Positions 1 to 62,166 of a DNA stretch of 64,000 nt are shown here, piece after piece. The notes beneath the pieces were generated by a model. It did not search any database. It was not told the DNA's origin and saw only the letters and a list, made by a program, of their open reading frames with translations. The stretch is from a virus. A program made the position numbers and the translations under genes. Each line of letters begins with the position of its first letter. The first letter of the stretch is position 1. The stretch covers positions 1 to 64,000 of IMG/VR virus record IMGVR_UViG_3300037847_007805; one strand, 5' to 3'.

Positions 1-314
1 GCGATAACATTTTAGGACGGAAAAGTTTTTTAGGGGAAGGTTTGTATTGATGAGTTGAGGGAAGGTTAAGGCGAAAGAAAAAAAGAATGAAAAAAGAAGC
101 TGTTTAAGACAGGGAAAGTTGTATCTTGGACAAACTACACGGGCAAACAGCCCAAACCCCCGCAGAAAGCCTTAAAATAGATATAGATGCCGAGTACACG
201 CAGGACAAACACAGACGTAGCGTAGTGAAGGAGTGCCAACGACTGAACGAAGCGGTTGGGGGAAGGTAAAGGACAAGTGCGAACAGAAATTTCGTAAAAT
301 AAATGCAGATATAT

Positions 315-345
315 TTTGTCGAACCAAAAACCTTTTGTATATTTA
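315..345 (+). promoter_or_regulatory. Bacteroidota-type promoter (-33 TTTG, -7 TATATTTA variant)
   Basis: TTTG at 315-318, 19-nt spacer, TATATTTA at 338-345, upstream of the first operon. Confidence 0.5.
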
Positions 346-369
346 CAATGTAATCATAAAACTGAAACG

Positions 370-17888: not shown

Positions 17889-20800
17889 ATGAGTGCAAAA
17901 GCAAAATACGAAAGTTTAGATAGAAGTAAATTGGACAAAGGGGTTCTAAAACTTCTCGATGTTATGAAGAAAAAAACAGACAACTTTGAAAACAAAGAAG
18001 TTGTAAAAGCATCTAAAGTAGAAGGTGCTTTGGATAAGCTGATAGCTAAATATCCTGATGCTGTTAAAAAGTCAAAGCCAAAAGCTAAAGCCAAGCCAAA
18101 AGCAAAGGCGAAAGCAAAAGCTAAATCTACAGGTTCTCCTAAAAAAGAAACTGTAATGACTGTGGCTAAAAGAATTAGAAAGGACGGAGAAAAATGGCAA
18201 GATGCACTCAAAAGAGCCAAAGCAGAAATGGGTAAAGAAACCAAAAAATCTAAATCTGCTGTTGAATCTGAAATGGATAAATTAAAGAAACTAATTGCCG
18301 AAGATAGTGTTCTAAAAGGATTTCAAAAATCTGACTTACAAAGAGATTCTGTAAGAAAAGCTAAACCAAGAGGAAAAAGAAAATCTACTACCAAAGGTGA
18401 AACTACTAATCAATATGGTACATTCAAAAATAAAGTTGGTAGACCTTATTGGGAAAGCAGAGAAAATCGTTCTGATAGATATGCACCAAAATATCCTGCT
18501 AACAAACCATTTTTAGAAGATGGTGGAGTAATTGTAGGTGGTTCAACAGTTCTTAGAAACAATGCCGATATAATGGATTTAGGAATTGCTAATTCTGATG
18601 CTGTATTTAAGCACGGTGGGGCAATACATAAAATGAGAAAAGAAAAAGATATTGACATTTACGAAGAACAAATGAAACATGGTGGTAAAACGCATGGTTC
18701 AGATTGTGGCTGTAAAACCTGTATGGAAAAAGGTGGTATGGTTGAGTATGCTATTTTAGAAGATTATGATGGGAATGACATAGAAAAAATGAAGTTTCCA
18801 AAACCAATAATTGAAAGTGAAGTAGTAGAGCCAATGGGTTATTCATTAGCTGATATTGAGGAAGATGAAGATGGAGTTCTTTATGCAAGATTTCAGCAAG
18901 ATGATGAATTTGCTAAAGGTGGAAGAATGAAGCAAGGTTACAATGACCGATTAGACGAAAGTTTAGGTATGCGTGATGGTGTCGAACCTATGATGATGCA
19001 ATCTTACAAAGACCGTAGAGATGAATCCAAAGGAATGGAAAAAGCTATGGGTCGTAGAGCATATCAATCGGTTGGCACAATGGATAAAATGGGTCATGGT
19101 GGTATGATGCAAGGTTACAACGATAGATTAGATGAAAGTTTAGGTATGCGTGATGGTGTCGAACCTATGATGATGCAATCTTACAAAGACCGTAGAGATG
19201 AATCCAAAGGAATGGAAAAAGCTATGGGTCGTAGAGCATATCAATCTGTGGGTACTATGGACAAAATGGGCATGGGTGGATATTTATTAGCGGGTGGCAC
19301 AGGTGCTTATTTAGGTGCTAAATATCCTGATAAAGTAAAAAAAGTAACTGACCCGTTAGATAAAGCTGTTGAAGATATAAATAGAAACTTAAGAAATAGA
19401 TATGAAGATGGCGGACTTGTAGTAGGTGGCTCAACAGTCCTAAGAGATAACGGAGATATTATGCCCTTGGGAACTGCTAATGCCGATGCAGTATTTCAGA
19501 CAGGTGGAGTTACAGCCCAAACTGTTGTAAACCCAAATGAAGCGATGGCTGATTTACAAAGCACTTATGGTTTTGATGATGTTTATGCTAAAGGTGGGAA
19601 GATAAAAATTAGGAATGGCAAGGTAGTAAAAACCGATATAATTCACGAAAAGGAATCGTTAGGTTTGCCATTTCGAATTGTTTATTCTAAATTTTTAAGA
19701 GCAAATGATATTTCTGAATCATCTTTGTCATTGGCAGATTCACTTGAACTTGAAACTATTGCGTTAAATGAGTGGGAAAAAAGTAATAAAACCTACGCTA
19801 AAGGGGGTTATATTGTTGAATGGTATGAAAATGACCAAAATAATTTTGAATACTTTGATAGCAACGAACTTAATGAGGCAAAGGACTTCTATAAATTTAT
19901 TAAAGACGAAAAATTCTATTACGAGAAACCTAAAGTGGTTTTAACTTCAAGAAGTGATGGAGAAGTATTAATGGGTAAAAAATTTGCTAAAGGTGGTAAA
20001 ATTGATGTAAGTAATTATAAAATCAATTATTTTGAAACTGAAAGCGATAGAGATAGTGGCGAATCTCAACAATTTGATTCTTTTGAAACTGATTATGATG
20101 CTTTCATAAATGATGCAAGACGTTTATATAAAAGAGATGGAATGGAAGCTGTTGAGGTTTTAAACGAAAAAGGAGAAACAGTCGTAATTTTTGATAATGA
20201 CACTCCCGATGGAGAATTTTATATGACTAAACCTTCCAAAAAATCTTCTAAATTAGAAGTTGGAGAATTTCAAGTAGGCAAAAGGGTAGGATTTATAAAT
20301 ACTCCACACGATGAAAGAGTTGGTGAAATTGTGGGAGAAGAACAGAATGGTAAATACCCTGTTAAATTAAAAAGCAAAATACACCAAGGATTTGAAGATA
20401 GAAAAGGTGAGCCAAAACTCATAAAAAGAGAGAACTTAATTAGATTATATAGTAGATGGGACGAAAGGGAAGAATTGGAGAAAAAATTTGATAGCGAAAT
20501 GAAAAGAATTTCACCTAAACAAATAGATAGGATTAAAAAAGAGTATGAAAAATATGAAGATATGCTCTCTCCTAAAAGGGATAATCCCGAATTTCAGGAA
20601 TTTTTTGTCAGAGAATCCCAAAAAATATCCATGGCTAAAGGTGGGAAGATTGATAATATGATAGGTAAAAAAGTTAAAGTTGATTTCAGAAAAGAGGTAG
20701 GCAAAATAATAAATATAGAAAATGATGATGTTACTGTTTTTTATCCTGAATTGGGATTTTCAGAAGTATTAGATGCTAAAGCAGTAGAAATTGTTTTTTT

Positions 20801-22004
20801 ACCAAATAAATTCGCTAAAGGTGGGGAGATTGATGGATTTACTATGAGCATGGTCAAATCAAGTGGAGATGTTACAAAAGTTGAAACCGAAGATGCTAAA
20901 ATCAAAATGGCTAAAGGTGGTATAGTAAAAAACCAAGATGAAAACCATTTATTGCGAACTGCAATAGGTTATTCAATAAGTAAAGGTAATCTTGATAAAG
21001 AAGATAGAAAAAAATTAACTGAAATATACAATAGGTTAGTTAGTTCAAAATTTCATTATGCTAAAGGTGGTAAAGTTGATGACTTAGGAAACCCAACAGA
21101 CCCAAAAGTCATTTCACAAATGGAAAAATTTATAAAAGAAAAAATGCCTAAATTGGATAAGGATAGATTTTTTACAGATGGAATGAAAAGAAAAGAAGCA
21201 AAAAGAATGTTCTATGAAAAATATGGTTATGGTGCTTATAACCCAAGGTTTTCAATTTTTGAAAAAGGTGGAAGGACAATGTATGATGCACCACCAAGTA
21301 AAATAGGTAAAGTGAAATTTTCTTTAGCAAAGGGTAGAGATTTTGACATAATTGTTCCTGAAGGTAAATTCAGGATTTTACGAATCCCCCCTTTTGATTT
21401 ACCAACAGAAGTTGTCGATATGAATAAAGGAAAAAATTTCCAAAAAACTCCCGTAAATGATAGTAAAATTGCTCAAAAATATCAAAAAGAAATTCAAGAG
21501 TATTTAAATATGGATAGTACAAGATTTGAAAAAGGTGGTAAAATAGGATTTGAAGCATTGTCAAAAAAAGTTGCTAAAAGATATGTTGGCAAAAAAGTTC
21601 CTAAAAAATTCCAAAATCAATATGGTAAAACATATAGTCCTGCCGAAGCAAAAGAAGTTGGAGATAAAGTAGCAGGTGCAGTATACAGAATGCAACAGGC
21701 TAAAAAAATGGCTAAAGGTGGTAAAACACAAGGGTACAATGATAAACTTGATGAAAGTTTAGGAAACACCAAAGGGAAGCGTTCTACTAAAGAGCAAAAC
21801 TATAAAGACCGCAGAAATGAATCCGAAGCAATGGAGAAAAAGGGCGGTAAAAGAAAGTATGCCCGTGTGAAAACAATGGATAAAGGTTCAAGAAAAAAGA
21901 AGCCAAATAGCTTTTTTGCTGTTGTAAAAAGAAAGCAGAAAAAAGGAGAGGCTTGGCAAGATGCTATTCAAAGAGTAAAAAAAGAAATGAAAATGAATAA
22001 ATAA
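17889..22004 (+). CDS. giant modular protein punctuated by [MFYL]xxGG motifs (putative core/cargo polyprotein)
   Basis: about 19 motif copies separating short modules; basic termini; internal duplications. Confidence 0.8.
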   Translation: MSAKAKYESLDRSKLDKGVLKLLDVMKKKTDNFENKEVVKASKVEGALDKLIAKYPDAVKKSKPKAKAKPKAKAKAKAKSTGSPKKETVMTVAKRIRKDGEKWQDALKRAKAEMGKETKKSKSAVESEMDKLKKLIAEDSVLKGFQKSDLQRDSVRKAKPRGKRKSTTKGETTNQYGTFKNKVGRPYWESRENRSDRYAPKYPANKPFLEDGGVIVGGSTVLRNNADIMDLGIANSDAVFKHGGAIHKMRKEKDIDIYEEQMKHGGKTHGSDCGCKTCMEKGGMVEYAILEDYDGNDIEKMKFPKPIIESEVVEPMGYSLADIEEDEDGVLYARFQQDDEFAKGGRMKQGYNDRLDESLGMRDGVEPMMMQSYKDRRDESKGMEKAMGRRAYQSVGTMDKMGHGGMMQGYNDRLDESLGMRDGVEPMMMQSYKDRRDESKGMEKAMGRRAYQSVGTMDKMGMGGYLLAGGTGAYLGAKYPDKVKKVTDPLDKAVEDINRNLRNRYEDGGLVVGGSTVLRDNGDIMPLGTANADAVFQTGGVTAQTVVNPNEAMADLQSTYGFDDVYAKGGKIKIRNGKVVKTDIIHEKESLGLPFRIVYSKFLRANDISESSLSLADSLELETIALNEWEKSNKTYAKGGYIVEWYENDQNNFEYFDSNELNEAKDFYKFIKDEKFYYEKPKVVLTSRSDGEVLMGKKFAKGGKIDVSNYKINYFETESDRDSGESQQFDSFETDYDAFINDARRLYKRDGMEAVEVLNEKGETVVIFDNDTPDGEFYMTKPSKKSSKLEVGEFQVGKRVGFINTPHDERVGEIVGEEQNGKYPVKLKSKIHQGFEDRKGEPKLIKRENLIRLYSRWDEREELEKKFDSEMKRISPKQIDRIKKEYEKYEDMLSPKRDNPEFQEFFVRESQKISMAKGGKIDNMIGKKVKVDFRKEVGKIINIENDDVTVFYPELGFSEVLDAKAVEIVFLPNKFAKGGEIDGFTMSMVKSSGDVTKVETEDAKIKMAKGGIVKNQDENHLLRTAIGYSISKGNLDKEDRKKLTEIYNRLVSSKFHYAKGGKVDDLGNPTDPKVISQMEKFIKEKMPKLDKDRFFTDGMKRKEAKRMFYEKYGYGAYNPRFSIFEKGGRTMYDAPPSKIGKVKFSLAKGRDFDIIVPEGKFRILRIPPFDLPTEVVDMNKGKNFQKTPVNDSKIAQKYQKEIQEYLNMDSTRFEKGGKIGFEALSKKVAKRYVGKKVPKKFQNQYGKTYSPAEAKEVGDKVAGAVYRMQQAKKMAKGGKTQGYNDKLDESLGNTKGKRSTKEQNYKDRRNESEAMEKKGGKRKYARVKTMDKGSRKKKPNSFFAVVKRKQKKGEAWQDAIQRVKKEMKMNK
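18933..19270 (+). repeat. 177-bp tandem duplication encoding QGYNDRLDESLG...GTMDK
   Basis: near-identical DNA copies starting at 18933 and 19110; diverged third copy at ~21729. Confidence 0.9.
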
Positions 22005-27723: not shown

Positions 27724-28300
27724 CAATAAATCAAAACACGAAGATTTATTTATTGAATTTTCATATTTCACAAGAGATTATGGAACAAATGCTTTATTGC
27801 ATAATTTAAAAATTCTAAACGATTCTTCAGGCTACCTTGAAAACCAATCCTCACAAGAAGAAATTTTGACACATGAATTGGGTCTTGCTTTTTCAGAATA
27901 TGGCATAAATTTTATTTCACTTTTTTTTCAAACAAATCGAACTAAAATGCTTAATTTTGAATACAGCGAAAACTCGGCATTAAATGACAAGGTTTTTGAA
28001 ATTATTTGTAGGGTTTTTAAAACTACCAAGGATTCAATCTTAGACAAGTTTGATAGAGATGGAGTAAGAGTTTATGCAAGTGGTTCGCTATTTAAATTGT
28101 TATTAGATACTTGTGGATATAGTGTAAAAGAGGTAATGTTGCTCACAGGAAAGCCAAGAAGCATAATTAGTAGACACAAAAACATAATCAGCAATTTAGA
28201 CCATAAACACATATTTGATAAAAAGATTATCAAAAAATTTATAGAATCTAAAAAACAATTAATTAAATATATTTTAAATGAGTACAAGCAAGAAAACTAA
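27704..28300 (+). CDS. hypothetical protein with C-terminal HTH-like region
   Basis: GYSVKEVMLLTGKPRSIISRH. Confidence 0.5.
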   Translation: MTLLPNSNKSKHEDLFIEFSYFTRDYGTNALLHNLKILNDSSGYLENQSSQEEILTHELGLAFSEYGINFISLFFQTNRTKMLNFEYSENSALNDKVFEIICRVFKTTKDSILDKFDRDGVRVYASGSLFKLLLDTCGYSVKEVMLLTGKPRSIISRHKNIISNLDHKHIFDKKIIKKFIESKKQLIKYILNEYKQEN

Positions 28301-29252
28301 TGACGAAGCAGAAGAAGTAGAGTTTGAAGAAGTCGGCTCTTTTGATGCTAACCCTGATTTTTCTCCTTTTGACGAACCTGTTAAAGAAAGAGATTATACT
28401 AAGCCAAACATAGATGCTTCACAAATTGAAGGTGAATTAGAAGAACCTACATTTGAAGCACCAAGTTTTTCTGATTTTGAAGAAGAAGAAGAACCCAAAC
28501 CATTTAATCCAAGTTACAATGAATTAGGTAATAAGGAAAAACAAATGGGTGCGGAAATGATTGCAGACGTTGTAGTAGACGGATATGCTCGTTTGAAAAA
28601 AGGTATGGGTAGCCTTTCCACTATTTCAGAAAATAAATTAGAAAGAGAATTTGCTGAAGGAAATATCAACCCTAATTTACAATTACCTATAGATGAATAT
28701 GGAAATACTGCATCTATTAGAGAATTTGTAAAAGAGTTTAATGAAACAAGTAAAGAAGCGTTTGATACTCCTCAAGATTTTAAAGAAAAAGTAAAGCCAC
28801 CTCTTATTAGAGTATTCAAAAAAAGAGGTGTAGGAATGACTGATGAACAGTTATTACTTTACTATTTTGGAACTGACTTTGCTACAGCAGGTATTACCGC
28901 ATTTGGTCTTAAAAAATCAGCAGATGGGATTTTGAAACAATTAAGAGAACAAACTGATTTAATGCGTTCTCCCGCAAGTCCACCACCCCCACCTTCTAAT
29001 CAATCATCAACAGATGTTTCGGAAAGTGAAAGTGAGTTTGAAGAACCTGAAGAAGTTTTTGAGGTACAGCCCGATATAGTAGCACCAAAGAAACAGTCGA
29101 ACTCAAACTTTAGTTCAGAGCAAGAAGTTCCTGAAAATATGCCTTCTTTTGGCGACCCTGCTATTTTGAAGGAGATTGATAAGATTGCTTCACAAGAGAA
29201 CTTAGATTCAAAACCCAAACGAAAAAGGGGTAGACCTAAAAAGAAAAAATAG
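28278..29252 (+). CDS. acidic protein upstream of the packaging ATPase
   Basis: E/P-rich termini, hydrophobic central helix, C-terminal KRKRGRPKKKK. Confidence 0.7.
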   Translation: MSTSKKTNDEAEEVEFEEVGSFDANPDFSPFDEPVKERDYTKPNIDASQIEGELEEPTFEAPSFSDFEEEEEPKPFNPSYNELGNKEKQMGAEMIADVVVDGYARLKKGMGSLSTISENKLEREFAEGNINPNLQLPIDEYGNTASIREFVKEFNETSKEAFDTPQDFKEKVKPPLIRVFKKRGVGMTDEQLLLYYFGTDFATAGITAFGLKKSADGILKQLREQTDLMRSPASPPPPPSNQSSTDVSESESEFEEPEEVFEVQPDIVAPKKQSNSNFSSEQEVPENMPSFGDPAILKEIDKIASQENLDSKPKRKRGRPKKKK

Positions 29253-29257
29253 GCATT

Positions 29258-29410
29258 ATGTTTACCAAGGAAACAAATACATTAACTAACCTGTTTTTAC
29301 GGGGAATTAGTTTAACAACTCCGTGTGTTACTTATACATACATAACTTTAGATAATCAAACATTTGTTTGTATAGATGAAAAATACACGATAAAATATCA
29401 TACAATATGA
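29258..29410 (+). CDS. small hypothetical protein (50 aa, not in ORF track)
   Basis: ATGA overlap with the ATPase start. Confidence 0.4.
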   Translation: MFTKETNTLTNLFLRGISLTTPCVTYTYITLDNQTFVCIDEKYTIKYHTI

Positions 29411-30219
29411 GAGAGCCAAAATTAGGAGTAGCTGTAGGGAAAAAAGGTGTAGGGAAAACTTACACTACTGATAAGGTAATACAAAGCTATGTTCAAGGTA
29501 ACCCGAGCAAAGGTGTAAAACCAAGACGAGCATTAATACTTGATGTAAATGATGAATTTGAACATATAAAAGCCTTACGAGTAAAAGACGTTATGAAGTT
29601 TTCTGTCCACCCTACCGTAGAAGCAAGAAGAATACGACCATTTATGGAAGATGGTCAAAAAATGACCATAAGAGAAATTCAAGAAACTTTATTTGAAATC
29701 TTAAGACACTATAGAGGCGGTTTACTTTTGATAGAGGATATAAACAGATATATTTCAGACCAACTACCAAATGACGTTGTGGGTGCTATATGTACAAACA
29801 GACACTCTGACACAGATATAATTCTTCATTTTCAATCTATTGGAAGGGTAACTACAAAAATTTGGCAGAACCTAAATTGGTTAAGATTTCATAAAAACAC
29901 CGATTCTGTAGATAGACACAAACACAAATTTGAAGATAAATTTGAATATCTTAAAATAGCAGAAATTTTAGTAAACCATAAATACTATAATGGCGATGAA
30001 AGATATTTTTTATATGTAGATGTTGATAGTGAGAAGATATTAGGAAACGTATCAAAAAAAGATTTAGATTTTGCTATCGAGGAATACATTTCTAAGTATT
30101 ATAAAAAAATTGTTACTCCACTTTTAAATCAAGTTGGCATGGACGGAAAAAAGAAATATACACCCGAATCAGCCATCAAAGAGATTAAATCCAAGATTTA
30201 CAAGAATTTTAGTAAATAA
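29407..30219 (+). CDS. A32/P9-like (FtsK-HerA superfamily) genome-packaging ATPase
   Basis: N-terminal Walker A GKKGVGKT, LILD strand, Walker B LLLIED, NRH arginine motif, HFQ glutamine motif; 270 aa, no nuclease domain. Confidence 0.75.
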   Translation: MREPKLGVAVGKKGVGKTYTTDKVIQSYVQGNPSKGVKPRRALILDVNDEFEHIKALRVKDVMKFSVHPTVEARRIRPFMEDGQKMTIREIQETLFEILRHYRGGLLLIEDINRYISDQLPNDVVGAICTNRHSDTDIILHFQSIGRVTTKIWQNLNWLRFHKNTDSVDRHKHKFEDKFEYLKIAEILVNHKYYNGDERYFLYVDVDSEKILGNVSKKDLDFAIEEYISKYYKKIVTPLLNQVGMDGKKKYTPESAIKEIKSKIYKNFSK

Positions 30220-30285
30220 ATGCAATTATCCTTTTTATTTGCAGATAATTTTATTTATTAAAATAAAAATTATTATAAAAGACAA

Positions 30286-30293
30286 TATATTTG
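30286..30293 (+). promoter_or_regulatory. Bacteroidota -7 promoter element TATATTTG
   Basis: upstream of the 30357/30537 unit. Confidence 0.6.
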
Positions 30294-30356
30294 AAGCGTA
30301 GATAGTTCTGTAACTGTTTACGCTAATTTATTTATTAACTTTTATATCATTCTGTA

Positions 30357-30485
30357 ATGAATACCAAAGTGCTTATGGAGTTTGGTAAGTCCGTTTTAAC
30401 TGTCGTTGTAGGAGTAGCTGTATATAATGCAGTAAAACCTATGCTCGATAAGGCAAAATTGTCTGCACCAAGTTCTGACGAATAG
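30357..30485 (+). CDS. small membrane protein (42 aa, not in ORF track)
   Basis: MNTKVLMEFGKSVLTVVVGVAVYNAVKPMLDKAKLSAPSSDE, apparently co-transcribed with the capsid candidate. Confidence 0.65.
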   Translation: MNTKVLMEFGKSVLTVVVGVAVYNAVKPMLDKAKLSAPSSDE

Positions 30486-30536
30486 TCAAACGAAATTTTA
30501 AAAATTATTTATTAACCTTATTTTAAATTATTTATC

Positions 30537-31229
30537 ATGTCAAATGTACGCAGATATTTAGCAAATGCACAGAGAATGGCAAACGAATCTTTCTCTAATG
30601 CAGATGGTTTCATTGATGATGATTTGTCTTTCACAGGCGAAGATTTTTTCAGTGCTAATGGAGTAGGCGGTGGTTCAGCACCAACTTCTCAACCATATAT
30701 TGTTACTGTAACTTCTACATCAGGAAGTGCTGTATCAAACTTTAAGGTGCTTGGTTCTTACGAGTATCTTAACAATTCAGGTTTCACCGCAGGTGGCGAC
30801 CTTGTAATTGGTTCAATCACTATTTCAAGTGGAATTTCAGGTATCACATACCGTGAAATGTTGTACCAATTTATGAACAATCCGTATAGTGTAGGACTTA
30901 CTTATGTACAGTCAGCTACAGCTAATCAGATTTTGGAAACTATTTCTGTTAATACAAGAGATGCTAACGGTAATGAAGCACAAAAAACACTTGTGCCAAC
31001 AATCGACCCGTATCAGCAACAATCTACAGTATTAGCTATGAAATATGCTTACCGAATTGATGGTTTCACAAAACTAATCATTCGTCAGATTTTAGCTAAC
31101 GCTACTGTTAAATTGTACTTCTACCCATCTGACAACATTAACCTTGCAAGAGGTCTTGCAGGACAAAATGTTTCTCGTCAGTACGGAAACCCAGGCATTG
31201 TAAAAGCACAAACTATCAAATTAACATAA
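30537..31229 (+). CDS. candidate major capsid protein (beta-rich, possible single jelly-roll)
   Basis: follows the packaging ATPase, has its own promoter and terminator, strand-rich, paralog at 54559. Confidence 0.55.
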   Translation: MSNVRRYLANAQRMANESFSNADGFIDDDLSFTGEDFFSANGVGGGSAPTSQPYIVTVTSTSGSAVSNFKVLGSYEYLNNSGFTAGGDLVIGSITISSGISGITYREMLYQFMNNPYSVGLTYVQSATANQILETISVNTRDANGNEAQKTLVPTIDPYQQQSTVLAMKYAYRIDGFTKLIIRQILANATVKLYFYPSDNINLARGLAGQNVSRQYGNPGIVKAQTIKLT

Positions 31230-55486: not shown

Positions 55487-56958
55487 GTTACAAAGAAGCC
55501 ATAAGTTTAAAACTAACAAATAACACTTCTATTGACCAACCCATTGGAATACTTGGGGGGCAATCTTCTACATATCAAAACTCAAATAATAACATTTTAG
55601 TTGAGTGGGATTTAGCAGGTGAAACTTTTTCTGCCACAACTGTTACTCTTGATACTACTGTGCCTGTTACGGTAGATTTGCCTTCTCAAAACATACAGGG
55701 AGTAGTAGAAGCGTTAAATACAACAGATAAAGCTATCTTTACTACTTCAGGAACAAAAGTTTATGCAACATCTTTAAGAGATAGTAGTGTTCAATCCGCA
55801 GATATAAGTGTTGGTACAAGTGGAACATATTTAGCAAAGGTTTTAGGAACAACTGCCGATAGTGTTAATTTTACTCAATTTTCTCCGTCATCTGTAATTA
55901 GTGCATTTGAAAGTGCCACAACAAATACAGGAACAACTTTATACATAGACCCAAGTGATACAATTACTGTAGGGACACAGCTTTATGATGATTCTTTTGG
56001 AAATACCGCATCAACAGTAACGCAGTTTGCAACTCAAGGACTTGGCTCTAACCCAAATGTGCTTACTATTCATAATGGAATTATAACAGAAGTAACTCCC
56101 CGAGGTAACTTAACTAATAATTTTTCGAGGGATATAACTGCGATGCCTAATTTTAATAAATCTACAGTTTTTACAGGAACTACGGGGCAGACGGGTAAAT
56201 TCATAAAACAATGGGTGCTTTCAACAAATGGTAAATATGTATTTGCCATTGAAGATAATGCTGTAATTTACAGATGGACATTTACAACCGCATGGGATTT
56301 TTCGACATTTGATAATACTTCAACTACCTCGCTTGACTTAACAGGTCTTGATGGTTCTGTAGGCACTCAAAAAGGATTGGCTATAAACCCCATTGGAAAT
56401 AAATTATATTTTTATGATAATGGTAATGGTGGCTATAGAAGTGTTAGTTTAAGCACTCCGTTTGATTTATCAACTGCTACGTTAGATAGTTTTACAGCTA
56501 ACGTAAGTACAGCAAGACAAATTTGTTGGAATAATGATGGCACATCTTTAGTGGGTATTGATAAAACTGCGGGTATTAATATAAGTGCTTATTCAACACC
56601 TTTTGATTTATCTTCATATCAATCTAATCAGAATGAGCCGACTATGACAACCTACATAAACCCCTCAAAAAGTAATGCATCATGTGAGAGTTTAATTATT
56701 TCGCCTGATGGGACTAAATGGTATGTACTGTTTTTCGCTGTTGGTACTCCGAATGAATTTGAAACCATACAGGTAGATATTAGTAGTTATAGCGATATAA
56801 CAACACTAAACCAAACAGACAACAATAGGCAATTCGATGGAATATCAGAGGTTACAAATGGCTTGTGGTGGAATGAAAATCAAACTGAATTATTTTTCCA
56901 CCAATCAGCAAATGGTGGTGATAATGATATTTATAGAGTTGATTTCCCTGCACCTTAA
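55483..56958 (+). CDS. putative spike/receptor-binding protein with beta-propeller repeats
   Basis: TTAWDFST, LSTPFDLST, YSTPFDLSS repeats with NPIGNK/NNDGT/SPDGTK turns. Confidence 0.65.
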   Translation: MSYKEAISLKLTNNTSIDQPIGILGGQSSTYQNSNNNILVEWDLAGETFSATTVTLDTTVPVTVDLPSQNIQGVVEALNTTDKAIFTTSGTKVYATSLRDSSVQSADISVGTSGTYLAKVLGTTADSVNFTQFSPSSVISAFESATTNTGTTLYIDPSDTITVGTQLYDDSFGNTASTVTQFATQGLGSNPNVLTIHNGIITEVTPRGNLTNNFSRDITAMPNFNKSTVFTGTTGQTGKFIKQWVLSTNGKYVFAIEDNAVIYRWTFTTAWDFSTFDNTSTTSLDLTGLDGSVGTQKGLAINPIGNKLYFYDNGNGGYRSVSLSTPFDLSTATLDSFTANVSTARQICWNNDGTSLVGIDKTAGINISAYSTPFDLSSYQSNQNEPTMTTYINPSKSNASCESLIISPDGTKWYVLFFAVGTPNEFETIQVDISSYSDITTLNQTDNNRQFDGISEVTNGLWWNENQTELFFHQSANGGDNDIYRVDFPAP

Positions 56959-57758
56959 AATTCATCATCTATATCCAACGATTTGGTAAGGTTAGAATAT
57001 AATGGGTTTTTACCAACCATTTTCCCTCTAATAAGATTTACGTTGTCAGATTCATCAACAACTATATAATCGCCACCCTCAACATGGTCATCATAAGAAA
57101 TGGCTTTTTGTAACTTTAAATCTTCTTTTGGCAGGGTTTTACTTAATTGTTTTAGGACTATTTTTTTTACAGTCCAATACTGTGGGTCTTTAGTATCATT
57201 AAAATATAAATGATTTGGAGTTTTTTGCATTTTAATAATTTGAGAAATTTCTGTTTTAGACATCACTTTAAATACAATATCGTCATCATTTAGCTTTACA
57301 CAAGCATAAATGTATTTTATATTTTCAGCTTTTTTTACAGCTTTTTCGGAAGGTATGTGGGTTAGCTTCGGGTTAATTCCTAATTCGTACTCGAAGTCAT
57401 CACCCTCAAAAACTACCTCTGTCCAAACTTTTTTTATCTTATTGCTACGATATAATAAAGTGATAAGCCCCTTGTAACCAATTATAGGGTTTATGGAGTT
57501 TTTAAAAGGTATGAAGAAAAACTCACCAACCAACTCACTTGGATTTAACCCTAACTCGGCACAATGCAAAATAGATGCAAATAATGATGCAGGATTTTTT
57601 TGAAATGCTGATTGAAGCTGTGGACTTCTTTTCAGTTCCGTTATCATAATCTGCTTGAATTTCGCAGGACTTATTGGACTATCCTCAAGAAGTTCAGTAA
57701 AGTTTTTCTTTTCATATTTTTCTATTGTGTTTTGAAAATTTGTTATAAGTTCTTTCAT
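56955..57758 (-). CDS. recT: RecT-family ssDNA annealing protein
   Basis: CAELGLNP, FFIPF, IIGYKGLITL, VFEGDDFEYELG, KKIVLKQLSKTLP. Confidence 0.9.
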   Translation of the reverse strand: MKELITNFQNTIEKYEKKNFTELLEDSPISPAKFKQIMITELKRSPQLQSAFQKNPASLFASILHCAELGLNPSELVGEFFFIPFKNSINPIIGYKGLITLLYRSNKIKKVWTEVVFEGDDFEYELGINPKLTHIPSEKAVKKAENIKYIYACVKLNDDDIVFKVMSKTEISQIIKMQKTPNHLYFNDTKDPQYWTVKKIVLKQLSKTLPKEDLKLQKAISYDDHVEGGDYIVVDESDNVNLIRGKMVGKNPLYSNLTKSLDIDDEF

Positions 57759-57997: not shown

Positions 57998-58792
57998 TTA
58001 ATAATATACTGTATCAATTAAGGGTAATCGAGTAGCATATTCACAATCCTCAAACAAAGGACATTGTGTGCAGTTTTTAAGGCTTGGTTTGGCTTTAAAA
58101 ATCTTATCTAACGGATTACTATTGATTTGGTTATATACGAAGGCTACGTTGTTCTTATGAAGTTCTAATGTGGATTCATCAATAACTTGTTTTATGATTT
58201 TTGCTTGTTTTGGGTTTGATTGTGAAAAAACAAAGTAATAAAAGTCAAAATCTTCAGGTTCATGATTTAAACAATCTTTTGCCAACAGGGTGTATTGAAC
58301 CCCCTGTATCATTAATTTATGCTTTTCTGTTAATGAGTTTGTTTCCCAACCCCTTTCGTCCCATTTGTTATCTATAAGACCACTATATTTTAAATCTATG
58401 AAGCAGAACCTATCGTTCCATTTTGCATAAATATCTGCAATCCCATTCATTTGTTCATTTTTCAATGAAAGCCCTACGTCAATAATTTCTATTCCATATT
58501 CTTTTACAATATCTTTAAAGTAAGAAGCACTATCTTCTGCCCTTTGAAAAGGTGCAGACAATTTTTCACGGGCTGTTCCTTTATAGCTTATTTTAGGTTC
58601 AGGAACTTTTCCGTTTCTTGGTAAAGCCCCTGTGCATTTATATTCAAAATAGTTACCTAAGTCCATAGCTTCACTACTTGGAAACTCTACACCCTCAAAA
58701 TACTTTGCTTTTATTTGTAAACCACAAACATCTACGAAATCAGATTTATAATCTGAAAAATCTTTTAAAAATGATTGGCTTATTCTATGCAT
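57998..58792 (-). CDS. PD-(D/E)XK exonuclease (RecE/Cas4-like)
   Basis: ISQS, C, GIADI, IDLKY, Q..QY, C-terminal CTQCP...C. Confidence 0.75.
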   Translation of the reverse strand: MHRISQSFLKDFSDYKSDFVDVCGLQIKAKYFEGVEFPSSEAMDLGNYFEYKCTGALPRNGKVPEPKISYKGTAREKLSAPFQRAEDSASYFKDIVKEYGIEIIDVGLSLKNEQMNGIADIYAKWNDRFCFIDLKYSGLIDNKWDERGWETNSLTEKHKLMIQGVQYTLLAKDCLNHEPEDFDFYYFVFSQSNPKQAKIIKQVIDESTLELHKNNVAFVYNQINSNPLDKIFKAKPSLKNCTQCPLFEDCEYATRLPLIDTVYY

Positions 58793-59090
58793 TATTTATT
58801 TTTTTAAATTCATTTTCTTCAATCCAACCATCTGAAGTTACATCTGTTCCAACCCAAATGTGATTTTTACCATGTCTTTTTCTTTCTGAAACTCCTTTTA
58901 CAGGCATTTCAATCCTTACATCTTCAAGAGTTCTCAAGTCAAGAACATCTGTTTTATTTGCCAATTCGTTTAACATATTATCTGCTTCATCTTTTGAGTA
59001 TGCTTCCATAATCACAGGTTTTGGGTTACCCATAAAGTAATACTTATAGAATTTCACTTTTGGTTTTGACCAATCCTTCATATTTCTCAT
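58785..59090 (-). CDS. hypothetical protein
   Basis: overlapping ORF in operon. Confidence 0.6.
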   Translation of the reverse strand: MRNMKDWSKPKVKFYKYYFMGNPKPVIMEAYSKDEADNMLNELANKTDVLDLRTLEDVRIEMPVKGVSERKRHGKNHIWVGTDVTSDGWIEENEFKKINNA

Positions 59091-59368: not shown

Positions 59369-59765
59369 ATACACATAGTTTATATTTATTTTCATAGTAT
59401 TTTTTAATTCCATAAGACAGTAAAACCTTTTTCATAAGTAAAAACAAAAACTCTTTATCTTGTTTTTTTAAATCCATAAAAGTTTCTTTTACAATATCAT
59501 CTTCAGATTGTTTGATTCCATAATAAAGTAATTCCATTAAAAACTCTGAAATTACTATTTCCTTTATAGGAAGTTCCTCTGTCAGTTGCTCGGTAATCAT
59601 TATGTCCTTAAAAAAGTGCATAAAATTACTATCCTTTAATAGACCATCTACCATAACAGCAGTATTCCTGTCCTCTTTCCTGTGTGCTATATCAAGCAAA
59701 GATTCAGTAGCCCTGTCATCTATCTGCTGAAAAAATACATTCCAATCTTTCTGTGTTATCATCAA
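59367..59765 (-). CDS. hypothetical protein
   Basis: ORF. Confidence 0.6.
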   Translation of the reverse strand: MMITQKDWNVFFQQIDDRATESLLDIAHRKEDRNTAVMVDGLLKDSNFMHFFKDIMITEQLTEELPIKEIVISEFLMELLYYGIKQSEDDIVKETFMDLKKQDKEFLFLLMKKVLLSYGIKKYYENKYKLCV

Positions 59766-60091
59766 AAATCCTTAAAGGCAAATGGTTTGCCTAAAGAATT
59801 ATTTTTGCAGTAAGTTAAGAGTGCATTATAGTATTTTAAAGCATCTAAACGATTTTTCGCAACAACTTTCCCATAGAAAAACCAATAGTAATTACCATCG
59901 TTATCTAATACTCCAAATTTATAGTTTGTTTTTGAATTAAGAAAGAAATTTTCGTCAATTATGCTTAAAACAGCCATAGGATAGCCCCTTTCGACAAATT
60001 CGTTATACTCAAATTTGTGGGACAATTCTTCTTCAGTAAATGGTATGATTTTAAATTCCACTTCTGTCTTTATTTTAATTACACATGGCAA
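59762..60091 (-). CDS. hypothetical protein (start probably downstream of 60091)
   Basis: minus-strand TATATTTG at 60089-60096 overlaps the called TTG start. Confidence 0.55.
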   Translation of the reverse strand: MPCVIKIKTEVEFKIIPFTEEELSHKFEYNEFVERGYPMAVLSIIDENFFLNSKTNYKFGVLDNDGNYYWFFYGKVVAKNRLDALKYYNALLTYCKNNSLGKPFAFKDF

Positions 60092-60162: not shown

Positions 60163-60870
60163 CTAATCTACTAACTGCTTGAATAACATATCTTTAGAGG
60201 TAAAGTATGCTGTAACTTTTTCTACGTTTTCAGGAGTATCTCTGTAATAAATACAGTCAGTTTTCCAACAATCAAAGTCATCACCAAGTAAAACAGAGCA
60301 TTCGTACATTAGCTGATAACAAAAATATCTTATGTATTTATAAATCATTCTTTTGTTTTCATCACCTTCATCAATACAAACCCTTTCTCCCATGTATTTA
60401 CCATCAAAACGGGTAAAATGTTTTTTCCTACCTAAAACAGATAAAGTTGCCAATCTAAGGGCTTTAGACGGGCTTTTAAGACCTTTTTCATAAGTATCTT
60501 CACTTATTATTCCTTTAATCATAGCTATTCTCCAATAAGCATGGTCGAGGTCAGTTCCTGTAACTTTGCCTTTATTGTGGTCGAAATCAAGATTATATTT
60601 AGTTACTTCGTGTTTAGGTGGTAATGCAATCTTTTTTCTTCCTTTCAACCATTTAGTTACATCTCTATTGACACTTTTAAACATAAATAAATAGTTGCGA
60701 GGGAAATTTTTTGAGTGAGGAAAGTAAAACATTGTATTCTCAAAAATAATTTGAGTGGATTCAGATGTTTTTTTTAAGAAGAATTTTGTGTTTTTATTTT
60801 TTAAAGTCCTAATTAATCTATTAGGATTTGAAAACATCATTTTAGTTATTTCATAGTTAAATGAACTCAT
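60163..60870 (-). CDS. minimal family-B-like DNA polymerase (palm/fingers only)
   Basis: motif A-like GTDLDHAYW, motif B-like KALRLATLSVLG, motif C-like WKTDCIYY. Confidence 0.55.
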   Translation of the reverse strand: MSSFNYEITKMMFSNPNRLIRTLKNKNTKFFLKKTSESTQIIFENTMFYFPHSKNFPRNYLFMFKSVNRDVTKWLKGRKKIALPPKHEVTKYNLDFDHNKGKVTGTDLDHAYWRIAMIKGIISEDTYEKGLKSPSKALRLATLSVLGRKKHFTRFDGKYMGERVCIDEGDENKRMIYKYIRYFCYQLMYECSVLLGDDFDCWKTDCIYYRDTPENVEKVTAYFTSKDMLFKQLVD

Positions 60871-60885
60871 TGTGTCTAATAAGTT

Positions 60886-61770
60886 TTATATTATTCCCCC
60901 TTCATCAAACATTTCTTCTATTTCTTTTACAGCTTTTCTGTATTCAGCTTTTGTTTTAAGACCAAGTTTAAATTCTTCTAACAGTATTTCTTTTGCTCTA
61001 TTTTTATCTGCAAGTGGGGTTCTTTGCCTTGTAGGTTTTTTAACAGTTTCTTTTTTTGATTTCGTTGGTCTTTTTTGTGTTTTTGCTTTTTTTAATCTTT
61101 CTCTTTTAGTTTGCTTTTTCTTTGATTGAACTTTTTTGATACGTTCTACCCTTCCTGTATCTTCTACAGGCACTTCTCTTTCCTGTGCAACTTGACCTTC
61201 TTCATCTAAAAGTTTTGTTCCATCAGATAAAACAAAATCAATAAAATAAGAACAGTTTGAGCCATCATCTTTTTTGTTTGGAACAACTTTTATAATTCCT
61301 TCAAACACAAGTCCACTTTTGTTATCTACAAATTGTCTTATGTTTTCTACAATAGGCTGAACCTCTATTTCGATATTTATGTTTTGAACTTGGTCAATTC
61401 TTGTTCTGCCAAATTCTGAACCCCCATTTACTCTGACTTGAACATTTTGTGGAAGCCCTTGTAGTGTATTTTCTATTTCCCACCACTCTAAAGAAATTAT
61501 ATCAGCTTTATTTACAGCGAAAACAGAAAAACAAGGAGAAACTTTTTTTGGTGCTGTTAAGCCTAATGCTAATTCAACCTCTTTTTTAATATCAGCAACT
61601 TTGACTTGGTTTACTGACTTTCCTTTAAATTTAGGATATACATTAGCCGAAGTCCATTTTTGGATTTCATTCCATTTTTCGGGTCTACCCTGCTTCTCAA
61701 ATTCTTTTTTGACTTGCTTTGCACACTTGTTAAACAATCGCAAACCATTATTTTTGGGTAATTTCGGCAT
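60886..61770 (-). CDS. basic hypothetical protein upstream of the polymerase-like gene
   Basis: K/R-rich termini; ends FDEGGII. Confidence 0.65.
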   Translation of the reverse strand: MPKLPKNNGLRLFNKCAKQVKKEFEKQGRPEKWNEIQKWTSANVYPKFKGKSVNQVKVADIKKEVELALGLTAPKKVSPCFSVFAVNKADIISLEWWEIENTLQGLPQNVQVRVNGGSEFGRTRIDQVQNINIEIEVQPIVENIRQFVDNKSGLVFEGIIKVVPNKKDDGSNCSYFIDFVLSDGTKLLDEEGQVAQEREVPVEDTGRVERIKKVQSKKKQTKRERLKKAKTQKRPTKSKKETVKKPTRQRTPLADKNRAKEILLEEFKLGLKTKAEYRKAVKEIEEMFDEGGII

Positions 61771-61878: not shown

Positions 61879-62166
61879 TTAATCCTCAATAGGTGGCTTT
61901 TTATATTTCTTTATTGATGATTTAGAAACCCCAAAATACTTCACAGCTTCATTGATAGAATTATCTTTACAAAACTGATAAATTTTTTCGGCAGTATCAC
62001 TATCAATTCGGTTATTTTTAAACCCAATATCGGTTAAATCGTGCTTTTTGCAATGATAGTTTATTGTGCTTTTAGCACACTCTAATTCTTTGGCTATTTC
62101 ATTGTAGGTTTTACCTTCCTCTCGAAGCGATAAAATCGCATTTTTTATTTGTCGTGGTCTTGCCAT
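61879..62166 (-). CDS. tandem HTH DNA-binding protein
   Basis: GKTYNEIAKELECAKSTINYH and SINEAVKYFGVSKSSIKKY. Confidence 0.75.
   Translation of the reverse strand: MARPRQIKNAILSLREEGKTYNEIAKELECAKSTINYHCKKHDLTDIGFKNNRIDSDTAEKIYQFCKDNSINEAVKYFGVSKSSIKKYKKPPIED

Follow-up and report, generated by a model that had tools for sequence, protein, structure and literature searches.

The DNA analysed here (i.e. the window) comprises the first 64 kb, positions 1 to 64,000, of a 79,409-bp viral record in IMG/VR (IMGVR_UViG_3300037847_007805) that carries a CheckV rating of 100% complete. Its minus strand contains two open reading frames (ORFs) spaced 15 nt apart, the upstream one encoding a basic protein of 294 amino acids (B294) and the downstream one a 235-aa protein, termed mPolB, with the appearance of a miniature family-B DNA polymerase (PolB; Table 1). 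An initial annotation of this DNA had reported both ORFs, with the basic protein preceding a polymerase-like protein that displays PolB motifs A, B and C in order and has no room for exonuclease or thumb domains. Both ORFs were recovered at the same coordinates on the minus strand, and the motifs follow one another as T-D107-L-D-H-A-Y-W (A), K136-A-L-R-L-A-T-L-S-V-L-G (B) and K-T-D205-C-I-Y (C). The gene pairing was examined in 65 loci (i.e. the present one and 64 related viral loci) for which all ORFs were clustered. A B294 homolog was located upstream of mPolB on the same strand in all 65 loci, the gap measuring between -11 and +50 nt in 60 cases, and B294 itself has an isoelectric point (pI) of 9.7, as expected of the basic protein that had been described.

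The distribution of mPolB was determined using an exhaustive phmmer search of 1.84 billion representatives, which returned 350 cluster representatives at E<=1e-3, of which 38 reached E<=1e-30; almost all measure 230-300 aa. A word-indexed search returned 380 clusters on contigs of up to ~117 kb, all unnamed or labelled 'hypothetical protein' and without a Pfam domain. The family is virus-only and is without a name, Pfam model or PHROG model; in assemblies from ~186,000 species it was present on just three metagenome-assembled genome (MAG) contigs, each with the same viral module. Annotation of the family would resolve a recurrent virome 'hypothetical protein', as 350 clusters have neither a name nor a Pfam model. 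Near-identical sequence was detected in marine metagenome runs from 11 studies (2014-2025), indicating that the virus is recurrent in the sea. No match was obtained among 50,697 deposited phage genomes by tblastn of mPolB, B294, a capsid candidate and an ATPase, or by blastn of 8 kb, and a description of the mPolB family or virus group was not found in the searchable literature, being absent from surveys of double jelly-roll viruses and of bacterial polymerases.

Conservation was assessed in an alignment of 81 sequences with 22-52% identity to the query. D107, K136 and D205 were the sole invariant columns, indicating a maintained active site, and their equivalents are retained in a divergent subgroup of 290-330 aa. 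Both motif aspartates are thus conserved in homologs, as is the motif-B lysine. Conservation of at least 90% was observed for Y112, W113 and A116, the first being Tyr in 76 and Phe in five of the 81 sequences. The spacing D107-x4-Y112 is that of the D-x4-Y of PolB motif A, of which the Tyr is the steric-gate residue. Given 350 homolog clusters and three invariant motif residues, the motifs of mPolB are not due to chance. Fused longer forms (at least 413 aa) were not found, which is weak evidence.

The fold of mPolB was predicted with AlphaFold2 from the same alignment (predicted local distance difference test score (pLDDT) 95.2; predicted template-modelling score 0.88). The model consists of an N-terminal beta/alpha domain (residues ~1-75), a palm (~88-235) and vestigial fingers formed by helices within 124-144 and a hairpin at 150-167. 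D107 closes the strand 103-108, which is followed by helix 111-118; K136 starts the second of two short helices (124-131 and 136-144) that precede the fingers hairpin; and a long helix (171-198) leads into a hairpin (199-210) whose turn holds D205. Helix 213-225 and strand 230-233, the last strand of the palm, complete the protein with nothing beyond, so that exonuclease, TPR and thumb domains are lacking from the model, in line with the lack of room noted initially. As modelled, mPolB is a right-hand polymerase palm of classic layout with a vestigial fingers insert, in which D107 of motif A, Y112 at the steric-gate position, K136 of motif B and D205 of motif C are candidates for catalysis. 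A putative clamp-binding motif (K-Q-L-x-Y/F) at the C-terminus was also considered and rejected: it coincides with the last palm strand of the model and its Gln occurs in only 17 of the 81 sequences.

Structural comparison of the model with 48,161 PDB representatives using VIA-align placed family-B enzymes in all of the top seven positions (Z 7.2-8.1; 128-222 residues aligned; root-mean-square deviation 3.5-6.2). These were human Pol alpha (twice), herpes simplex virus 1 Pol, a catalytic-domain Pol alpha entry, Pyrobaculum PolB, RB69 gp43 and phi29 polymerase, with generic ferredoxin-like or cyclase folds ranking lower (Z 5.5-6.4; 61-70 residues). Residues 7-235 of the model were aligned to 55-488 of phi29 polymerase and residues 88-235 to 842-1043 of Pol alpha. 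By the numbering of the catalytic aspartates in these enzymes, D205 falls exactly on phi29 D458, D107 lies within one residue of Pol alpha D860, and the aligned range comes within three residues of RB69 D411. A Foldseek search of the PDB returned only right-hand polymerases as top matches (human immunodeficiency virus reverse transcriptase, Escherichia coli Pol II, retron reverse transcriptases and RNA-dependent RNA polymerases; E 2e-3 to 3e-2). The BFVD top matches comprised uncharacterised viral proteins of small size, together with a 290-aa entry named 'divergent family B DNA polymerase' and UL8 of herpesvirus; similar models were found there for uncharacterised giant-virus palm proteins of 250-340 aa. 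The predicted fold is therefore a polymerase palm, nearest to family B, as the motifs had suggested.

No corresponding link was detected at the level of sequence. Neither mPolB nor any of its 81 relatives matched a Pfam or PHROG model, a PDB profile search with mPolB returned nothing at E<=10, and hhalign comparisons with phi29 polymerase and with a 12-sequence Bacteroidota PolB profile were insignificant. A harvest of PF03175 sequences from 401 Bacteroidota genomes gave nothing at E<=1e-20. The sole alignment against the 12-sequence profile sets D107 and Y112 on the Asp and Tyr of motif A, with a probability of 0.13. Those ESM-atlas neighbours of mPolB that have a Pfam family carry PolB families (scores 0.84-0.85), a result of value as a lead only. 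As sequence comparison falls below detection, the family-B assignment is based on structure and motif logic and, as no single Z score is strong, leans on the consistency of the structural matches. mPolB is accordingly described here as a PolB-type protein with an upstream partner and not as a demonstrated member of family B.

Having examined the polymerase-like protein, the properties of its partner were investigated. In the AlphaFold2 model of B294 (pLDDT 87), a basic helical bundle at the N-terminus spans residues 8-68 and an acidic alpha/beta domain residues 96-182; a Lys/Arg-rich helix (202-231) follows, and the chain closes with a SHOCT-like hairpin that finishes in F-x-x-G-G-I-I. Charge is unevenly distributed, with a pI of 10.0 for residues 1-70 and 11.2 for residues 196-250 around the acidic central domain. 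Among 39 family members R145 of the acidic domain is invariant, and hydroxyl residues are conserved at T123 (37/39), Y175 (34/39), S/T41 (31/39) and S/T273 (36/39), none of which is singled out as a primer. B294 has no Pfam or PHROG match, SHOCT matches being weak and limited to six of the 39 members; a structure search gave no match above helical-hairpin noise, and an atlas search no usable match. Prediction of an mPolB-B294 complex produced a score of 0.25 against a mark of 0.32, a value that decides neither way. Some mPolB homologs (P0002, P0008 and P0172) are ~355 aa long with an N-terminal extension of ~110 aa, whose motifs resemble the SHOCT-like C-terminus of B294 (weak hhalign; E 0.02, probability 2%). 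Judged by sequence, this extension may link the two families at the level of a domain.

The C-terminus of B294 reads M-F-D-E-G-G-I-I and fits the motif [MFYL]-x-x-G-G, as do the termini of 48 of 65 B294 homologs. This motif occurs 21 times in a 1371-aa protein of the window as compared to 1.9 expected occurrences and a maximum of seven in 500 shuffles. If it represents a protease site, B294 would be processed like a virion precursor, recalling the adenovirus pTP.

The initial annotation had proposed a check for inverted terminal repeats (ITRs), which was negative for the present record, whose right end is incomplete, and positive for its relatives. Among 32 long relatives, the IMG/VR class was inverted terminal repeats for five and direct repeats for none. 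Flush perfect ITRs were measured in G009 (123 bp), G420 (127 bp), G424 (127 bp), G431 (123 bp) and G432 (653 bp). In a further three relatives (G010; G011, 50 bp; G002, 48 bp) an inverted copy was found with one arm internal, that of G010 consisting of 117 bp perfect plus 101 bp at 93% and lying ~0.9-1.3 kb from the end. End-joining inverted repeats thus total eight of 32, and the one-arm-internal pattern is that expected from a longer ITR collapsed in assembly. As 123 and 127 are common assembler k-max values, the ITRs of these lengths are lower bounds. Neither direct terminal repeats nor a ResT/TelK protelomerase (PF16684) was detected in the 32 relatives. The tRNA-Met and tRNA-Gln genes are near the ends of G431 and G432.

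The present record is not end-complete, as an independent public contig extends 186 nt beyond its right end, where coverage is too thin to place the terminus. Its nearest comparison is the ITR-bearing G009 (72.5 kb, 100% complete), which is colinear with the present genome over 4.7-62.2 kb and part of whose ITR has a homologous counterpart at the left end of the window (Table 1). This counterpart contains TTTG...TAnnTTTG, which we take to be promoter-like and of Bacteroidota type; a scan for sigma-70 promoters remained at background level, the sigma-70 consensus being unsuited to Bacteroidota. Outside this counterpart, nt 1-276 are rich in purines and in G and differ in this from the remainder of the genome (~30% GC). 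G-rich terminal sequence likewise occurs in G011, G005 and G010, the last of which has a 12-nt unit, ACTTATTTGACC, repeated four times beside its inverted repeat. Such end sequences could be telomere-like or could be assembly artefacts.

The combination of these features was compared with known systems. In the protein-primed systems of phi29 (p2/p3), PRD1 and Bam35, a PolB acts with a terminal protein; as in mPolB, the palm carries Asp (A), Lys (B) and Asp (C) in order, the genomes are linear with ITRs, inverted end repeats having been found in eight of the 32 long relatives here, and the partner is basic and poorly conserved between groups, as is B294. In the phi29 record the gene for the terminal protein immediately precedes that for the polymerase, close to one end of the genome, and the B294-mPolB pair is arranged likewise on one strand. 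By contrast, protein-primed PolBs are of ~550-575 aa with exonuclease, TPR1, TPR2 and thumb domains, all of which are missing from mPolB; the first Asp of D-T-D is replaced in mPolB; there is no detectable sequence similarity; and the phages concerned have genomes of 15-20 kb as opposed to 70-146 kb in the mPolB group. Known terminal proteins show no similarity to B294, for which priming is proposed by analogy. The piPolB of pipolins is likewise a palm of PolB type carried by a mobile element, and it starts synthesis in an unconventional way, as is proposed for mPolB; piPolB is full length with exonuclease and thumb retained, and no sequence relation between the two was found. Herpesvirus UL8 and small divergent PolB-like viral proteins, as structural neighbours of mPolB, illustrate that viruses keep stripped-down PolB folds, although the catalytic residues are lost in UL8 and invariant in mPolB. 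A minimal-core viral polymerase for short-patch synthesis has a precedent in Pol X of African swine fever virus (ASFV; 174 aa), which differs in being a family X enzyme with an unrelated fold and no gene partner resembling a terminal protein. Hairpin-telomere phages of the N15 type are set apart by their protelomerase, for which no match was found in the 32 relatives.

These observations lead us to propose, tentatively and at a little below an even chance, that mPolB is a minimal but active enzyme of PolB type which, together with B294 as a terminal or priming partner, initiates replication at the ends of linear genomes. Under this proposal mPolB would be a radically reduced family-B-type polymerase in which the palm and a stub of the fingers have been kept and the exonuclease, TPR and thumb lost, and mPolB and B294 would act as a two-gene cassette near one genome end, read inward. 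B294 would bind the genome ends and offer a side-chain hydroxyl as primer (T123, Y175 and S41 being candidates), and mPolB would attach the first nucleotides to this residue with the ITR as template. Extension would then proceed by mPolB tethered to the DNA via B294 or after transfer to the host replisome, and a Cas4-like nuclease and RecT protein encoded downstream may assist in recombination or end repair. We infer catalytic activity, a priming role for B294 and contact between the two proteins; the still unproven terminal-protein role of B294 is suggested by analogy, by the order of the genes and by the genome ends. A basic partner that evolves fast yet keeps its position is, by the same analogy, the pattern expected of terminal proteins.

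The pair forms part of a conserved module with the genes listed in Table 1. In 26 of 33 contigs of at least 45 kb, the module was located within the first 15% of the contig and is read inward. The nuclease family has the invariant residues D120, D133-x-K135, Q163, Y167, C23, C241, C244 and C250, and 12 of 23 members match PDDEXK_1. In the divergent subgroup (L127 and L128), the polymerase-like gene is preceded by that for a basic protein of 222-256 aa with overlapping stop and start; these upstream proteins are related to each other, an hhalign comparison with B294 was insignificant, and the pair has neither RecT nor the nuclease adjacent. On a Sediminibacterium MAG contig, a 531-aa ORF is inserted ahead of the nuclease gene, which is itself divided between two ORFs; the 531-aa ORF may be a mobile insertion.

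Table 1. Coordinates of the module genes and other features, in positions of the window unless stated otherwise
Feature	Coordinates	Strand	Basis or occurrence
mPolB, miniature PolB-like palm protein	60163..60870	-	ORF, 235 aa
B294, basic partner upstream of mPolB	60886..61770	-	ORF, 294 aa
B294 C-terminus with [MFYL]-x-x-G-G motif	60886-60910		
Small helix-turn-helix (HTH) protein, likely early-module regulator	61879..62166	-	Pfam HTH_38 and HTH_7; at this position in 26/65 loci
Conserved 109-aa protein directly downstream of mPolB	59762..60091	-	48/65 loci; no family match
Conserved 101-aa protein upstream of nuclease gene	58785..59090	-	44/65 loci; no family match
RecB/Cas4-like PD-(D/E)XK nuclease	57998..58792	-	49 loci, i.e. 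all long enough to show it
RecT single-strand annealing protein, last module gene	56955..57758	-	Pfam RecT 6e-31, phrog_148 4e-46; 49 loci, i.e. each extending far enough
Left-end sequence homologous to G009 ITR	296..350	+	90% identity over 30 nt to G009 ITR nt 24-53
1371-aa protein rich in [MFYL]-x-x-G-G	17889-22004		
270-aa ATPase	29407-30219		
230-aa capsid candidate	30537-31229		
404-aa phrog_704 protein	75771-76985 of the genome (L066:12771-13985), beyond the window	-	
MazZ-like / HD pair	77186-77491 and 78044-78616 of the genome (L066:14186-14491, L066:15044-15616), beyond the window	-	
531-aa ORF and split nuclease, Sediminibacterium MAG contig	L098:11281-14201		
tRNA-Leu(AAG) gene in ITR of G431	L119:8-82		

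The presence of other replication genes was also examined, as the initial annotation had stated that the genome also carries an initiator-type replication module. No such module was found: matches to DnaB_C, Prim-Pol, SSB, PolA and PolB were all absent, though not every ORF was scanned. PolA and PolB profiles were searched for in the present genome, DNA_pol_B_2 in five relatives and DNA_pol_B in five others, and DnaB_C, Prim-Pol and SSB in five genomes at least 98% complete. Family scans of 40 proteins of the window or genome identified lysis enzymes, glycosyltransferases, an AAA+ ATPase, an HD hydrolase, a MazZ-like domain and phrog_704, with no initiator among them.

Several observations weigh against a protein-priming role for the pair. 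A thumbless, proofreading-free enzyme of 235 aa is implausible as the sole replicase of genomes of 70-146 kb; as the bare enzyme would be unlikely to elongate such genomes unaided, we infer that the host replisome takes over or that B294 tethers the enzyme. Homology between mPolB and PolB was not detectable at the sequence level (Pfam, PDB profile search and two hhalign runs), a Z score of ~8 is 'middling' on the tool's own scale, and the mPolB family has K, R or N in place of the first Asp of canonical D-T-D. B294 is unlike any known terminal protein or solved fold. With regard to the genome ends, terminal repeats were not found in the present record, four of the five flush ITRs have the lengths of assembler k-max values, and most of the 123-bp ITR of G431 is taken up by a tRNA-Leu(AAG) gene, and this ITR could stem from a contig break caused by a repeat. 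One divergent member adjoins a DnaB-type helicase, so the mPolB cassette also occurs where a helicase is present. A role in recombination would suit the strict linkage of the pair to the nuclease and RecT equally well.

This linkage makes recombination a serious rival explanation, in which mPolB would be a distributive gap-filling polymerase of recombination or repair that serves the Cas4-like nuclease and RecT, with B294 as a DNA-binding accessory and bulk replication left to the host. No locus of sufficient length departs from the order B294-mPolB-...-nuclease-RecT, two segments of B294 are strongly basic, and mPolB as modelled appears too small and bare for processive synthesis; viruses can encode very small gap-filling polymerases, as exemplified by ASFV Pol X. 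We nevertheless consider this explanation unlikely on balance: modules of an exonuclease and RecT are common in phage early regions without a polymerase, the pair in L127 and L128 occurs without adjacent RecT or nuclease, and the terminal position, the ITRs and the upstream placement resembling that of terminal protein genes are left unexplained. A primase-like initiator that, in the manner of primer-independent PolBs, makes short primers de novo at a B294-bound origin for extension by host Pol III would fit a small thumbless enzyme with short products, the lack of a recognised primase in five near-complete genomes and the divergent member beside a DnaB-type helicase, where primases often occur. 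The tyrosine at the steric-gate position, replaced by Phe in a minority of sequences, suggests selectivity for deoxynucleotides, though piPolB also makes DNA primers, and internal priming fails to explain linear genomes that end in ITRs; this alternative therefore appears improbable.

The remaining alternatives deny mPolB a role in DNA synthesis. The moderate Z scores, the presence of generic ferredoxin-like and cyclase folds at Z 5.5-6.4 and the lack of a sequence-level link to PolB would all be compatible with a palm enzyme of non-replicative chemistry that has just the RRM-like palm in common with PolB (e.g. a cyclase or signalling enzyme, a nucleotidyltransferase modifying DNA or protein, or an anti-defence factor). 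Such a function is nonetheless judged decidedly improbable, as the best and longest alignments (128-222 residues) were all to PolB as opposed to 61-70 residues for the generic folds, the three invariant residues follow one another at distances that agree with motifs A, B and C, and the language-model neighbours with Pfam families, as a lead only, carry PolB families. It is highly improbable that mPolB is an inactivated PolB remnant with a structural or scaffolding role, comparable to that of UL8 in the herpesvirus helicase-primase complex: UL8-type proteins are among the structural matches and the exonuclease, thumb and first Asp of D-T-D have been lost, but the metal-ligand Asp pair and the motif-B Lys show no variation among 81 sequences and are kept in the divergent subgroup.

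If mPolB is active, it would be by far the smallest family-B-type polymerase and a natural definition of the minimal catalytic core of PolB, with a bearing on polymerase evolution (i.e. palm-first scenarios) and on enzyme engineering. Together with B294 it may constitute the smallest protein-primed replication system seen so far, and the pairing of the two genes in ITR-ended genomes is a directly testable candidate for a new protein-priming system. A wider version of the protein-priming proposal, which we regard as rather unlikely, is that Bacteroidota viruses with linear genomes of 70-146 kb replicate their ends or their whole genomes with a palm-only PolB of 235 aa, for which B294, as a new kind of terminal protein, serves as both primer and substitute thumb; if true, exonuclease, TPR and thumb would be dispensable for protein-primed initiation. 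The virus group concerned is widespread in marine metagenomes, and is without a cultured member or other recognisable replication genes.

Further observations were made on the remaining gene content. Ten large proteins of the window gave no match to portal, HK97 capsid or tail families, and the sole terminase-annotated match was a weak one of the 270-aa ATPase to phrog_2666, this protein also having a weak match to AAA_22. The 230-aa capsid candidate, which shares the stretch 28278-31229 of the window with the ATPase, has no family or deposited-phage match and is the best conserved protein relative to G009 (79%). A 404-aa protein matched phrog_704 ('DNA repair exonuclease', 5e-71), with no Pfam match, and is a second nuclease of the early region. 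A MazZ-like domain (dATP/dGTP diphosphohydrolase N-terminal, PF18909, 3e-7) adjoins an HD-domain phosphohydrolase; pairs of this kind go with nucleotide-pool editing in phages whose DNA is modified.

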